DNA of 25,134 bases from IMG/VR virus record IMGVR_UViG_2778261505_000007, positions 1-25,134 of that record, one strand, 5' to 3'. Under the pieces are notes generated by a model. That model saw only the letters and a list, made by a program, of their open reading frames with translations. It was not told the origin of the DNA and ran no database searches. Source of the stretch: a virus. Its lineage: Duplodnaviria; Heunggongvirae; Uroviricota; Caudoviricetes. Below are positions 5,100-15,449 of the stretch, in pieces. Made by a program: the position numbers and the translations under genes. Position 1 is the first letter of the stretch. Each line of letters starts with the position of its first letter.

Positions 5100-5684
5100 T
5101 TATTGTTTGTTTTTTTCGTTCTGGTTGATGACAAATTCAATGTAACTTTCGATCTTTGCCTTCTCTGTTTCAGGTAACAATGCGTAGCGCGAGCGGTCAT
5201 AGTTGATAGTCGCTGGGTCGTGCGGGTGAATCAGTAATTCATATCCGTGACGCCCAAATGCGGATGCAACATTCTCCAGGGTGGAAATGGAAACGCTGAC
5301 CTCATTGTTTAACAGGCGGCTGATTGTTACCTGGGCGACGCCGGATGCGCGGTGAAGTTTTCCCTGCGTTGAAAGGTCGCGGCTTTCGCTCATCCAGCGT
5401 TCCAGGTTGTGAGCCGCCAGCTGGCCAATGTCGCTTGGGCCGACAGGCTGAAAACCTTCCTGAGAAAGCGAGCGATCGATATCAAGCCAGTTACGGGGTT
5501 TATTGGCGGCAGCTTCAATTTTTCGTGCAACCTGGTCGCCGATAACCTTCTTGCCAAGAGCCCAGCGGTTTACCAGATTTGCCTGAGTTCCAAGTTTTTC
5601 AGCCATCCGCGTCTGAACACCATTGAATTCACGGTCGATCAAGTCGTTGAGATTTTGCCTGCGGACGTCCTGGATACTTTTCAT
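5100..5684 (-). CDS. CI-like prophage repressor, two XRE-type HTH regions, no S24 peptidase domain evident
   Basis: 194-aa ORF flanked by operator clusters and divergent from a cro-like gene. HTH-like segments TRMAEKLGTQANLVNRWALGKKVIG and GVAQVTISRLLNNEVSVSISTLENVASAFG. No GDSM-like serine or Ala-Gly cleavage motif found. Confidence 0.7.
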   Translation of the reverse strand: MKSIQDVRRQNLNDLIDREFNGVQTRMAEKLGTQANLVNRWALGKKVIGDQVARKIEAAANKPRNWLDIDRSLSQEGFQPVGPSDIGQLAAHNLERWMSESRDLSTQGKLHRASGVAQVTISRLLNNEVSVSISTLENVASAFGRHGYELLIHPHDPATINYDRSRYALLPETEKAKIESYIEFVINQNEKNKQ

Positions 5685-5784: not shown

Positions 5785-5813
5785 TTGTTACCTTATAGGT
5801 GAATATTTATTAT
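5785..5813 (+). promoter_or_regulatory. Putative rightward promoter for cro (P_R-like)
   Basis: -35 TTGTTA (5785-5790), 17-bp spacer, -10 TATTAT (5808-5813), about 25 bp upstream of the cro ATG. Confidence 0.45.
5788..5802. promoter_or_regulatory. Operator-like palindrome OR-b (TTACC-TTATA-GGTGA, one mismatch)
   Basis: Lies between the putative -35 and -10 of the rightward cro promoter. Confidence 0.5.
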
Positions 5814-5838: not shown

Positions 5839-6069
5839 ATGAGCGATAACGGACATTTCGATTTCAAAAAGCACTGGCTTGCACTTACTCCGGATGAGCG
5901 TGAAGCCTTCGCACAGGAAGCCGGAACGACGAGTCACTATATCCAGACTCACTTAACAGGTAAGCGCAAAATGCCAGGTAAGGTATTGATGGATGGGCTT
6001 TTTAAAGCCTGTAAATCAAGACAATGGCTGCGCTCAAAAGCAGAACTGGCATACTTCTTCTACTCATGA
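5839..6069 (+). CDS. Cro-like small HTH regulator (YdaS/Cro-like)
   Basis: 76-aa ORF divergent from the repressor, followed by a strong terminator. HTH-like segment LTPDEREAFAQEAGTTSHYIQTHLTGKRK. Confidence 0.6.
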   Translation: MSDNGHFDFKKHWLALTPDEREAFAQEAGTTSHYIQTHLTGKRKMPGKVLMDGLFKACKSRQWLRSKAELAYFFYS

Positions 6070-6090: not shown

Positions 6091-6114
6091 AGACCGCCAC
6101 CCGGCGGTCTTTTC
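6091..6114 (+). terminator. Rho-independent terminator after cro (tR1-like)
   Basis: Hairpin AGACCGCC-ACCC-GGCGGTCT followed by TTTT. Confidence 0.6.
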
Positions 6115-6435: not shown

Positions 6436-7251
6436 ATGAGCAGACATGCAACAGATTGGGCCTGGGAGACAGATCCAGGCAGCTCATCATTAAAGCTCAT
6501 ACTGCTCTCGATGGCTGACAGAGCCGATGAATATAACCTCTGCTACCCCAGCATAGAACGCCTCGTTAAAGACACTTGCCTGAATAAAAAAACCGTACAG
6601 GCCGGGCTTATATCACTCATGAGAATGGGGCTTATTTCAGATACCGGAGAGAGAAAGGGGGCGACGAAAAGAGTGCGGGTTTTCTCTCTTAATATAACCA
6701 AAAAAGGGAACATTAAAGGCAACCTGGAAGGGTGTAATGAACCCGAAAACGGTAATGTTCCCGAAAACGGGAATATACCCAAAAACGGGATGTTGAATGA
6801 TCCCAAAAACGGGATGTTGAATGATCCCAAAAACGGGATCCAGAACCAGTCATATAACCAGTCATATAACCAAGAGAGGGAGAGCAGGACAAAAACCGAG
6901 GATTCTGTGCCTCATGACCCCGGCGCAAACAACGCCGTGATGAATAACTTTGTTCCTCCTGGTGGGCCAGGGCAATTAGGCAAATTTGTCATGCATGAAC
7001 AATGGCAGCCATCAGATGACTTTCTTCGGAAAAGCTCATTGCAGGGGATCTACCTGGACAGTCTGCCAACGGCACAGGAACTTGCAGAGTTCAGAATTTA
7101 CTGGATGGCTGAGGGTAAGGCATACCATCAGGCACAGTGGGAGCAGAAGCTGGCAAGGCGGCTGCAGATTAGCAGACAGAAGCAATCAACATTACCTGAT
7201 AACAACGTTCCGCACTGGAACAGCCCTGAAGCATGGGAGGATTTCTTGTGA
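6436..7251 (+). CDS. Replication initiator (lambda O-like) with origin iterons inside the gene
   Basis: 271-aa ORF immediately upstream of a lambda P homolog. The coding sequence contains five tandem DNA repeats, giving the peptide repeats PENGN/PKNGMLND; this matches the lambdoid arrangement of ori inside O. Confidence 0.75.
   Translation: MSRHATDWAWETDPGSSSLKLILLSMADRADEYNLCYPSIERLVKDTCLNKKTVQAGLISLMRMGLISDTGERKGATKRVRVFSLNITKKGNIKGNLEGCNEPENGNVPENGNIPKNGMLNDPKNGMLNDPKNGIQNQSYNQSYNQERESRTKTEDSVPHDPGANNAVMNNFVPPGGPGQLGKFVMHEQWQPSDDFLRKSSLQGIYLDSLPTAQELAEFRIYWMAEGKAYHQAQWEQKLARRLQISRQKQSTLPDNNVPHWNSPEAWEDFL
6742..6867. repeat. Putative origin of replication: five direct iterons (CCCRAAAACGG core, 18-24 bp units) plus a 2x AACCAGTCATAT repeat
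   Basis: Direct repeats read at 6742, 6760, 6778, 6802 and 6826; the 6778 and 6802 copies are identical 24-mers. Followed by a tandem 12-mer at 6844-6867. Confidence 0.7.
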
Positions 7252-8033
7252 ACAACGTTTTTACCGCGATACAAAACCGTGACGGAGAAGCCCTTTCTCG
7301 CATGTCAGGTTATGAGCATCAGTACACCAACAATGACAACGTGGTGAACATGTCAGCAGAGAGGCTTGTTGATGCCCTTTTCAAACAGCTGAAACAACTG
7401 TTTCCGGCGGCAGTGGTAACCAACCTGAAGACGCCAGAGCAGGAAGTTGCTGCAAAACAGCAGTGGATTGCTGCGTTTGCCGAAGGGGGGATCCGAACCC
7501 GTGAACAGGTTTCTGCTGGTATGCGCCACGCCCGCGCCAGTGAGTCTCCGTTCTGGCCGTCGCCAGGGCAATTCATCAAGTGGTGTAAAGACAGCAAGAT
7601 GGTTCTTGGCGTCACCATTGACGATGTGATGGCGGAGTTTCACCGGTACAGCAAGGAAAAAAGTTTATATCCTGGTGGTCCAGAAAGATTCCCGTGGCGA
7701 CATCCGGTTATGTACTGGGTCGTATGTGATACCCGCCGTGCAATGTATCAGCGCCAGCTTAGCGAGATTGAGGTTGAGAAACACGCGCGCAGGCTGCTCG
7801 ATGATTGGGCGAAAAAGGTGGCTTCCGGACAGCAGATACCCGATCCGGTGATCAGCATACAGGCAAAGCCAGAACCCATGAGTACACCTCCGGACACAGG
7901 GAGAGACGTTTACCATCCACCAGGGCGAAGTTTCGGGTGCATGCCTAACGCCGCCACCCTTGGGGGAATAACACCGGCGCAGTGGCTGATGGAGGAATAC
8001 AGGCGGGGAAAGGCGGCAGGATTTATCAAGTAA
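7233..8033 (+). CDS. Replication protein P-like (DnaB helicase loader)
   Basis: Clear similarity to lambda P in blocks (AGMRHARASESPFWPSPGQFIKWC; YPGGPERFPWRHPVMYWVV). Start may be GTG 7248 overlapping the O stop, with GGGAGG Shine-Dalgarno at 7234-7239. Confidence 0.85.
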   Translation: MGGFLVNNVFTAIQNRDGEALSRMSGYEHQYTNNDNVVNMSAERLVDALFKQLKQLFPAAVVTNLKTPEQEVAAKQQWIAAFAEGGIRTREQVSAGMRHARASESPFWPSPGQFIKWCKDSKMVLGVTIDDVMAEFHRYSKEKSLYPGGPERFPWRHPVMYWVVCDTRRAMYQRQLSEIEVEKHARRLLDDWAKKVASGQQIPDPVISIQAKPEPMSTPPDTGRDVYHPPGRSFGCMPNAATLGGITPAQWLMEEYRRGKAAGFIK

Positions 8034-8038
8034 TACCA

Positions 8039-8058
8039 GCGCGATAGCGCATTTTTTT
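8039..8058 (+). terminator. Weak putative terminator after the P-like gene
   Basis: Short GCGC-GATA-GCGC stem followed by ATTTTTTTA. The stem is only 4 bp. Confidence 0.3.
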
Positions 8059-8070
8059 ACGCTCAAATAA

Positions 8071-8085
8071 TTACCTATCAGGTAA
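8071..8085. promoter_or_regulatory. Operator-like palindrome (TTACC-TATCA-GGTAA)
   Basis: Perfect site 20 bp upstream of a -35-like TTGATT. Confidence 0.55.
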
Positions 8086-8104
8086 TAAAATATTCTAAAC
8101 TCTA

Positions 8105-8133
8105 TTGATTTCGTGTCTTATGTGGTTTTTAAT
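8105..8133 (+). promoter_or_regulatory. Putative promoter for the 8151-12117 operon
   Basis: -35 TTGATT (8105-8110), 17-bp spacer, -10 TTTAAT (8128-8133). Same geometry relative to the two palindromes as at P_L. Confidence 0.45.
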
Positions 8134-8147
8134 TACCTCAGAGGTAA
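8133..8147. promoter_or_regulatory. Operator-like palindrome (TTACC-TCAGA-GGTAA)
   Basis: Perfect site abutting the -10 and overlapping the Shine-Dalgarno of the 8151 gene; 62 bp centre-to-centre from the 8071 site. Confidence 0.55.
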
Positions 8148-8150
8148 ATC

Positions 8151-8498
8151 ATGAGAAAACAGATGCAGGCTCTTGGTCGACTCAAAACAGGCCAGATGAA
8201 CAAAACAGAATCTGCGTATTGCCAGCACCTTGAGCTGCGTAAACGTGCAGGGGAAATCGCCTGGTATCGATTCGAGGGTATCAAGCTGCGGTTAGCTAAT
8301 AACACGTTCTATACGCCCGATTTCGCTGTGATGCTCGCCACCGGCGAGATGGAGCTGCACGAAGTGAAAGGGGGATTCTGGACCGATGACGCCAGAGTGA
8401 AAACCAAAGTCGCCGCAGATCAGTATCCGTTCCGAATCATCGGGGTAACGGTTAAGCCAAAGAAAGCAGGTGGTGGCTGGAACATCGAAGAGTTCTGA
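8151..8498 (+). CDS. DUF1064-like phage protein
   Basis: 115-aa protein with a pattern typical of the DUF1064 family common in lambdoid replication/nin regions (YTPDF...HEVKGG). Family call is from memory, not a search. Confidence 0.55.
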   Translation: MRKQMQALGRLKTGQMNKTESAYCQHLELRKRAGEIAWYRFEGIKLRLANNTFYTPDFAVMLATGEMELHEVKGGFWTDDARVKTKVAADQYPFRIIGVTVKPKKAGGGWNIEEF

Positions 8499-8559
8499 AT
8501 CGACGATCTTTTTAGTTATCAATGTAATCAATAAGTTATGTGGATAAGCGAGGGTAAAG

Positions 8560-14301: not shown

Positions 14302-15150
14302 TTACTTTTGTGTTTTTGATTTTCTTTGATGGGTGGAATTTAAACCACCATTTATATTTACTAGAGGATTATTCAATAATGTACTGATTTCTGGATTGTT
14401 AATTCCAGTAACGCCAAGTTTCTTTACGGACTCATTAAGGTCTTGTAATGATTTTAGACCTACAAACCCATTAGCAATTGTATTATTTGTTGCCAAAGGA
14501 ATGTTTTTCTTATAGGACTCATATTCGTTTTTTAAATTTTTGTGGGCTTTTTCTAGATTTTCTAGTTTAGATGTTGTTTCATGAATAACCTTAGATAATT
14601 CTAAAATACGAGCTTGTGCTGCGCGCAGTTCTGTCTCCCTCTCTTTCAATTCAGATGTGAGTTGTCCCATTCTGTCTTTTGAAAGAATTATTTCCTCTTT
14701 CATGTCTTGAATGTTTTTTTCAGCGCCTGTTTTTACTTTTTCGTAAGTAATGTCTTTTTTAGCCAGCAATCTCTGTAGCCGTGTTTCACGTTGTATTTTT
14801 CTTGCCTTCCGGTGATTTTCGATTGAGTCATTATTATCAAGAGGCTTTGCTTGCCATACGTTAATGATATTGTTTACCCATGGTAATAGGCAGCAGATAG
14901 TAATTACAGATAAGCATGGATAAAACATAACAGTTTTCCATGTGCTGTTATCTGAGATGTATGAAATTTTATCTATTATATTTGATTTGCTAAAAAATAG
15001 ATAAAGAAGTGATTTCCAGTTGAAGGCGCACCAGGACATAACAAAAGCACCTAGCACAGGGTTTTTAGCTCGATGCACGGCAGTATTGGCAGTAGATAAA
15101 AACAGCTCTTTGAACGATTCGAACATACTAATTACCTTAAAGTTTTTCAT
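14302..15150 (-). CDS. AT-rich gene: membrane-anchored coiled-coil protein of unknown function (about 282 aa)
   Basis: Opposite strand to all flanking late genes and visibly AT-rich. Two hydrophobic segments (PVLGAFVMSWCAFNWKSLLYLFF; TVMFYPCLSVITICCLLPWVNNIINVW) followed by a long charged heptad-like region. Preferred start ATG 15150 (AAGGT Shine-Dalgarno); the longer track ORF to 15222 would translate through a terminator hairpin. Confidence 0.6.
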   Translation of the reverse strand: MKNFKVISMFESFKELFLSTANTAVHRAKNPVLGAFVMSWCAFNWKSLLYLFFSKSNIIDKISYISDNSTWKTVMFYPCLSVITICCLLPWVNNIINVWQAKPLDNNDSIENHRKARKIQRETRLQRLLAKKDITYEKVKTGAEKNIQDMKEEIILSKDRMGQLTSELKERETELRAAQARILELSKVIHETTSKLENLEKAHKNLKNEYESYKKNIPLATNNTIANGFVGLKSLQDLNESVKKLGVTGINNPEISTLLNNPLVNINGGLNSTHQRKSKTQK

Positions 15151-15154
15151 GATT

Positions 15155-15169
15155 ATACCTTTAAGGTAA
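15155..15169. promoter_or_regulatory. Operator-like palindrome (ATACC-TTTAA-GGTAA, one mismatch)
   Basis: Overlaps the Shine-Dalgarno/promoter region of the AT-rich gene. A TTACC half-site also at 15132-15136. Confidence 0.4.
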
Positions 15170-15184
15170 TTTGTGGTCATCAGG

Positions 15185-15209
15185 CAAAAAAATGCCCGGC
15201 GAACCGGGC
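15185..15209 (-). terminator. Rho-independent terminator downstream of the tRNA
   Basis: On the minus strand, hairpin GCCCGG-TTCG-CCGGGC followed by ATTTTTTT. Confidence 0.55.
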
Positions 15210-15372
15210 GAACTGGAAGCAATGAGTTATGCCTTCCGTGGCTGTACGGGTTTACAGCATGAAGTCATCGCAATGGCGTCCTGCTGTAAAAAGGGCGGTG
15301 ATAGTCCTTCAAGGGAAACCATCACCGCCAAGCCCCTGGAACTTCTGGCATCACGGTCCTTAGGCGTGATTC

Positions 15373-15449
15373 TGGCGCGGCATGCAGGATTCGAACCTGC
15401 GACCAACCGCTTAGAAGGCGGTTGCTCTGTCCAACTGAGCTAATGCCAC
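15373..15449 (-). tRNA. tRNA-Arg (anticodon UCU)
   Basis: Minus-strand 77-nt sequence GTGGCATTAGCTCAGTTGGACAGAGCAACCGCCTTCTAAGCGGTTGGTCGCAGGTTCGAATCCTGCATGCCGCGCCA folds by hand into a cloverleaf: 7-bp acceptor stem, GTTCGAATCC T-arm, anticodon loop CTTCTAA, encoded CCA. Related to but distinct from the host argU sequence as I recall it. Confidence 0.9.

Follow-up and report, generated by a model that had tools for sequence, protein, structure and literature searches.

The origin of phage lambda lies inside the gene of its own initiator, O, where the iterons are placed right after the winged-helix N-domain, in the linker of the protein. It consists of four dyad-symmetric iterons of 18–19 bp with a CCC...AAAAC...GGG core (TCCCTCAAAACGAGGGA), which are spaced by 20, 24 and 23 bp and read in three frames. 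Downstream follows a strand-asymmetric tract of about 80% AT, and this AT-rich region is nearly all purine on one strand (PMC5043065). The gene of the P-family loader comes next, and the whole site lies past the repressor and cro genes. The Stx phages 933W and P27 have true lambda-type O proteins and iterons, with six iterons in place of the four of lambda (Kozlowska et al. 2020, PMC7466680). The origin of P22 (rep_origin 32840–32984, NC_002371) lies in gene 18 and also starts after the N-domain; its iterons (TCGGTAAAAC) are directly followed by a tandem ACAAAAGACAATA x2, one GAATCAGTCA unit is found after the last iteron, a CCCCCTAAAGGGGG palindrome stands at the right end, and the partner of the initiator is a DnaB-like helicase (gene 12). 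A related protein architecture has been described for DopC and DopE, the domesticated O-like and P-like genes of Cellvibrionales and Oceanospirillales, in which DopC combines an HTH_36 N-domain with a DnaT C-terminal motif and adjoins a lambda-P homologue (Brezellec et al. 2017, PMC5509034). The dopC gene is chromosomal and resident; these authors detected no iteron-like repeats in it, and they also reported an HHpred match of HTH_36 in lambda O (PMC5509034). In the origins of iteron plasmids (RepA, TrfA and pi-type), direct repeats are likewise bound by a winged-helix initiator and adjoin an unwinding element that carries short tandem 13-mers (PMC5043065), with iterons that are bound by monomers, about 22 bp long, asymmetric, helix-phased and located outside the rep gene.

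The DNA analysed here, a stretch of 25,134 nucleotides referred to as the window, belongs to a phiV10-like temperate podovirus of E. coli (genus Uetakevirus, 98% identity). A literature search found no paper describing the origin of this phage family, and no rep_origin feature is annotated in the phiV10 record. The gene order is the early-right layout of lambdoid phages, with repressor, cro-like gene, terminator, initiator and P-like loader. The repressor-like protein with two HTH motifs, an analogue of cI (5100–5684, minus strand; Pfam HTH_3, 1.2e-09; PHROG transcriptional regulator), is encoded divergently from the replication operon, and its phiV10 homologue is annotated as putative repressor. 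The first gene of the rightward operon, which continues into the initiator gene, encodes a cro-like small regulator (5839–6069, plus strand; phrog_35 transcriptional repressor, 8.7e-13), with a promoter-like site at 5785–5813 and a terminator-like hairpin at 6091–6110, and a terminator is annotated at the equivalent place in phiV10. The initiator gene (6436–7251, plus strand) is followed directly, as in lambda, by the gene of a lambda-P-family helicase loader (7233–8033, plus strand; Pfam Phage_lambda_P, 1.5e-56; phrog_109 ‘P-like helicase loader’), which showed 31% identity with lambda P (1e-35), in contrast to the DnaB-like helicase partner of P22. An alternative GTG start of the loader gene at 7248, which is the start annotated in phiV10, overlaps the stop codon of the initiator gene as GTGA (7248–7251), suggesting translational coupling of initiator and loader. 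A search of the window for DnaA boxes gave a single one, at 8539, no more than chance. Elsewhere in the window, a tRNA-Arg(TCT) gene (15373–15449, minus strand) and an unknown ORF of 306 aa without a Pfam match (14302–15222, minus strand) separate the portal gene from the ORF of the probable large terminase, and resemble an insertion of the moron type within the packaging module.

The initiator of 271 aa consists of a winged-helix N-domain, a disordered linker with the repeats and a DnaT-like C-domain, and matched phrog_1032 ‘replication initiation protein’ at 7e-107. The N-domain, encoded by 6436–6699 (plus strand), is presumed to bind the iterons and matched Pfam HTH_36 at 1.9e-10 (aa 18–67), whereas the C-domain, encoded by 6985–7191 (plus strand), matched Pfam DnaT at 1.2e-15 (aa 184–252) and is presumed to contact the P-like loader or single-stranded DNA. 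With the lambda-P homologue adjoining, this is the architecture of DopC, but the window gene is phage-borne and retains its array. In the AlphaFold model, aa 1–85 had a pLDDT of about 90–95 and a helix-helix-helix-helix-hairpin layout with a winged-helix fold; aa 90–192, including the segment encoded by the repeats, had a pLDDT below 50 and are predicted to be disordered, with a three-helix C-domain after them, in a model that is trustworthy for the N-domain only because it was built on a shallow alignment, the protein search with the N-domain having given just short or truncated proteins. Foldseek matched the N-domain weakly to winged-helix repressors and N-domains of plasmid initiators, and also to many viral HTH_36 replication proteins; against the PDB it gave generic winged-helix matches alone (E about 3e-3 or weaker), and no significant sequence match to the N-domain profile was found in the PDB.

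The sequence-only reading had called this gene O-like, which holds for the architecture and the role but not for the domains themselves. The N-domain is HTH_36, whereas those of lambda O and P22 gp18 belong to Phage_rep_O (PF04492), a family that the window protein did not match, and the C-domain is DnaT-like instead of a lambda O C-terminus. No pairwise BLAST similarity to lambda O or P22 gp18 was detected; hhalign of the N-domain profiles gave a marginal match (probability 52%, E = 1.5e-4, 49 columns) spanning the helix-turn-helix and the wing. In the records examined, the naming of the initiator by PGAP and in phiV10 is limited to DnaT-like (ssDNA-binding domain), primosomal or replication initiation protein. 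Many database copies of it are truncated or frameshifted within the A5–A6 runs of the iterons (proteins P0001, P0004 and P0005), and in YDC107_2 (L003), with single-base indels in these A-runs, the gene is annotated as several small CDSs. Such splits are probably homopolymer sequencing errors that break the gene in the annotations.

Sequence analysis showed that the initiator gene contains five exact copies of the core CCCRAAAACGG, starting at 6742, 6760, 6778, 6802 and 6826 with core-to-core spacings of 18, 18, 24 and 24 bp. The core was otherwise absent from both strands of the window, and none of 100 dinucleotide-preserving shuffles of the window reached five copies (mean 0.82). Tandem Repeats Finder recovered the same repeats as an 18-bp array at 6734–6788 (3.1 copies, 83% matches) and a 24-bp array at 6778–6839 (2.6 copies, 100%), the latter being an identical pair of 24-mers plus a partial third. 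The five direct repeats and the two identical 24-mers proposed from the sequence alone were thus found again, and so was their position inside a coding sequence, as the translation of ORF 6436–7251 reads ...NEPENGNVPENGNIPKNGMLNDPKNGMLNDPKNGIQNQSYNQSYNQ... across them, all five in a single reading frame. All of these sites lie on the plus strand. Iterons 1 and 3 are exact matches of the core (CCCGAAAACGG at 6742–6752 and CCCAAAAACGG at 6778–6788), while dyad symmetry with perfect arms of 5–6 bp is found in three of the five copies: iteron 2 (TTCCCG-AAAA-CGGGAA, 6758–6773, with 6-bp arms) and iterons 4 and 5 (both ATCCC-AAAAAC-GGGAT, 6800–6815 and 6824–6839, also within the array of Tandem Repeats Finder). 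The geometry is CCC-N6-GGG, with an A-tract at the centre of the dyad-symmetric copies. A sixth, degenerate copy at 6697–6709, 45 bp upstream, has one mismatch in the window (ACCAAAAAAGGGA), is intact in phiV10 (ACCAAAAACGGGA) and lies within the least stable 30-mer of the gene. From 6697 to 6839 the repeats correspond to aa 88–135 of the protein, between the N-domain (aa 1–85) and the C-domain (aa 184–252).

Compared with the lambda origin, the window thus has five exact and one degenerate sites in place of four, a CCC-to-GGG gap of six bases in place of nine, and spacings of 18 and 24 bp in one frame in place of 20, 24 and 23 bp in three frames; the dyad symmetry, the A-tract between CCC and GGG and the position after the N-domain are alike. 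The P22 iterons are unlike the window cores, and the plasmid iterons are of another class, since the window sites are dyad-symmetric, spaced by 17/18 and 24 bp and located inside the gene. On the minus strand at 6786–6829, the facing arms of neighbouring iterons (right arm of the first, left arm of the second) fold into hairpins with a T-run behind them, which score as terminator-like. These hairpins are probably a by-product of tandem dyad sites, and they could stop antisense transcripts. In iteron 1, CCGAAAACGGT at 6743–6754 equals the papillomavirus E2 consensus ACCN6GGT except for the first base, which is a coincidence; by analogy, both would be sites in a viral origin where a dimer binds across an A-tract spacer. 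A literature search with the motif led mostly to work on papillomaviruses, part of it on E2 sites.

The same motif was followed in 80 loci from different bacterial species with the same N-domain at 38–84% identity, plus four phages. Across 85 loci with this N-domain, CCNAAANNGG occurred 208 times in the zone from +240 to +600 of the start codon (6.9/kb), while the rest of that strand had 0.085/kb and the opposite strand 0.053/kb. The mirror positions of the arms were complementary more often than expected from the marginal frequencies (222 vs 176 and 195 vs 124), and the spacings in the family peaked at 17, 18 and 24 bp. In an Acinetobacter subgroup the CC-N6-GG geometry is retained around a different spacer (GTCCC-AACAAY-GGAAC); a Desulfovibrionaceae member of high GC content carries CGCCGGAAACGGCG. 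The arrays consist of 3–10 ordered copies, and the copy number is polymorphic even among relatives whose N-domains are 96–99% identical, with in-frame changes that give proteins of 263–295 aa. A similar variation of iteron number among close relatives, by tandem gain and loss inside the initiator gene, is known from the Stx phages.

Our results also showed that the array travels with the N-domain. HTH_36 was present in all 75 full-length members of the family, while the C-domains varied (DnaT in 8, Phg_2220_C in 5, DnaA_N in 2), and Edwardsiella phage GF-2 has the same N-domain and array joined to a lambda-O C-terminus at 62% identity, so that four or more different C-terminal domains are combined with the N-domain and its array. 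Conversely, the C-domain half of the gene is common to phages with other N-domains. Phage TL-2011b, which is 97.5% identical over 81% of the window and has a DnaT-like C-domain, carries another N-domain, as does SPN1S, a member of the same genus that shares the backbone or the C-domain, and the iteron motif of the window is absent from both. The edges of the module lie directly 3' of the array, where matches to the N-domain end near aa 134 and matches to the C-domain begin at aa 161–181. As the N-domain is kept with the array and the array is gone where the N-domain is replaced, the two behave as one heritable module, which would be expected for an initiator and its predicted binding sites. 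At the matching position in the linker of the TL-2011b/ZX5 initiator (L171, 2162–2235), GTAACGC occurs three times, two direct and one inverted, followed by GATATATATAAAA, and these repeats are probably the own origin of the alternative module.

Downstream of the iterons, the tandem 12-mer that had been noticed before as two copies was found as 2.4 copies of AACCAGTCATAT at 6844–6872 (plus strand, 100% matches by Tandem Repeats Finder). It is a candidate unwinding element and the local form of an array of GAAYC units at 12–13 bp. When a chain was defined as at least three [GA]AAYC units at 9–14 bp spacing after the last iteron, chains were present in 53 of 81 related loci and in 5 of 613 control zones, and their periods of 12 and 13 bp caused frame changes in 49 of the 53. 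The units are conserved from Acinetobacter to Desulfovibrionaceae and stay constant where iteron arms or C-terminal domains differ; the GAATCAGTCA unit of P22 resembles them. A role of the 12-mers as half-sites of the iterons was dropped, as the iteron arms and the GAAYC units do not covary. It is possible, although we hold it only tentatively, that the GAAYC units are a second, sequence-specific element of the origin, recognised by a surface or factor distinct from the one that reads the iterons. The initiator might contact them as single strands once the region has opened, or a conserved host factor might bind there, and they would then be a phage counterpart of the oriC 13-mers or the DnaA-trios.

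An AT-rich element downstream of the array, which the sequence-only reading had asked for, is weak in the window. The 12-mers are 67% AT, and nearest-neighbour calculation placed the two least stable 30-mers of the gene on either side of the array, at 6688–6717 (z = 2.7) and 6848–6877 (z = 2.0), the latter moderately unstable. The 12-mers run into a strand-asymmetric tract at 6868–6900 (plus strand) with 77–80% purine on the top strand; the 30 nt next to the 12-mers are 47–53% AT and the region after the array 53–63%. The window has no strongly AT-rich tract downstream of the array, and 12-mers with a G-containing purine-rich stretch stand where lambda has its tract of about 80% AT. In the family the mean AT excess downstream of the array was only +0.06 to +0.07, although many relatives have an A-run after their GAAYC units, a clear one in several. 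A palindrome of the lambda or P22 style past the candidate unwinding region, such as the CCCCCTAAAGGGGG of P22, was not found in the window but is present in some other family members. In seven relatives (L159, L162, L164, L170, L134, L148 and L167), a palindrome of the CCCCC(N)AAGGGGG type lies about 40–70 bp past the last iteron, follows the GAAYC units and closely resembles the palindrome that closes the P22 origin on its right side.

The repeats could have been selected at the protein level only, as a PxNG(x)LN linker serving spacing or flexibility, with the regularity of the DNA left by recent tandem duplication. The window copies, in frame at 18 and 24 bp and encoding a regular peptide, agree with this, as do the in-frame changes of copy number among close relatives, and since all window copies share one frame, the argument from reading frames rests on the relatives. 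Of the 37 intact genes that hold three or more copies, 27 read the core in two or three frames, and in the Vibrio salinus prophage L092 it is read as SPKNG, IPKTE and SQKRT inside one ORF. Where the copies do encode Pro-x-x-Gly in frame, proline is encoded by the rare CCC, with the synonymous third base held constant, in 128 of 135, vs 218 of 1130 Pro codons elsewhere in those genes; in the window CCC was used in five of five copies vs 9 of 164 in nine other ORFs. The motif is, moreover, strand-specific and dyad-symmetric, and the segment it encodes is predicted to be disordered. The sites of the family are related by tandem duplication and shared ancestry, and p-values therefore overstate the support, although all tests point one way. 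Every computational test that separates the two supports a DNA element over a mere peptide repeat, and these comparisons indicate that it is the DNA of the repeats, and not the peptide, that is conserved; selection on the protein alone appears largely refuted already and is extremely unlikely. The repeats might instead mainly mark a recombination joint at which N-domains are exchanged against C-domains and loaders, with no role in initiation, which would account for the module boundaries directly after the array and for the C-domains that differ among loci. Such a joint, however, needs homology only, not dyad symmetry, ordered sets of 3–10 copies or a second conserved class of repeats, and the junction has an equivalent position in lambda, where the function of the origin is proven (PMC7466680). 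We regard a joint without an initiation role as very unlikely; exchange at this point would most plausibly follow from the presence of an origin in the linker.

Conservation at the DNA level proves a cis-acting site, not initiation, and the initiator-binding sites could be mainly regulatory, with the true origin elsewhere, for example in the AT-rich DNA between the P gene and the gene that follows it. They could then serve titration or autoregulation of the initiator, a block to transcription through the gene, or exclusion of or incompatibility with related phages, and inhibition of related phages by extra copies of ori-lambda iterons is known (PMC3349717, PMC4488673). Stability in the neighbourhood is indeed lowest in the intergenic stretch at 8050–8155, after the P gene, and not beside the array, but this stretch holds a terminator annotated in phiV10 and, presumably, the promoter of the next gene. 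The order of iterons, short tandem repeats and A- or purine-rich tract, in the linker, is common to the origins of lambda and P22, and the downstream layout is kept in the same 53 of 81 loci, which argues against a purely regulatory array; we consider it unlikely. The preferred reading is that the five (or six) CCCRAAAACGG repeats are the iterons of a phage replication origin located where the initiator gene encodes the linker; this reading, judged by the sequence comparisons, is very probably correct.

The window origin would therefore add to the lambdoid class of origins that lie within their initiator genes, as proposed from the sequence alone and now supported by the lambda and P22 layout, the relatives and the gene context. 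It would be distinguished by its HTH_36/DnaT-like initiator, by a shorter iteron geometry and by conserved GAAYC repeats that replace a plain AT-rich tract. In the proposed mechanism, dimers of the winged-helix N-domain would bind the dyad-symmetric iterons and fold them into a bent nucleoprotein complex like the O-some of lambda. The 12-mers and the purine-rich tract, less stable than their surroundings, would then open, and the DnaT-like C-domain together with the P-like protein may bring the DnaB of the host to the opened DNA.

The initiator gene was present in 424 of 5426 complete E. coli genomes, and prophages of many further Proteobacteria encode its N-domain. Of the 436 places of the gene in the complete E. 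coli genomes, three were in records labelled as plasmids, and one of these (H67, NZ_CP079771.1, E. coli HL15) is, at 41,027 bp, near the size of phiV10-type genomes (about 39–45 kb). A phiV10-like temperate module with repressor, initiator and P-like genes also lies at 133.4–138.0 kb, near one end, in the 138-kb record of Escherichia phage BP9 (L002, PP488543.1), which is classified in the lytic genus Vequintavirus, and a phiV10-like module is contained in the 115-kb unannotated record of phage PH444 (H4); both records may be chimeric assemblies.

The arrangement itself is ordinary, and the understanding of lambdoid replication is unchanged by it. For the phiV10-like phages, the array provides a concrete candidate origin, which could be of use in correcting the annotation of genes that seem to be frameshifted in A-runs and in the design of replicons or reporter phages, and would allow the N-domain and the origin to be recognised as one exchangeable module.
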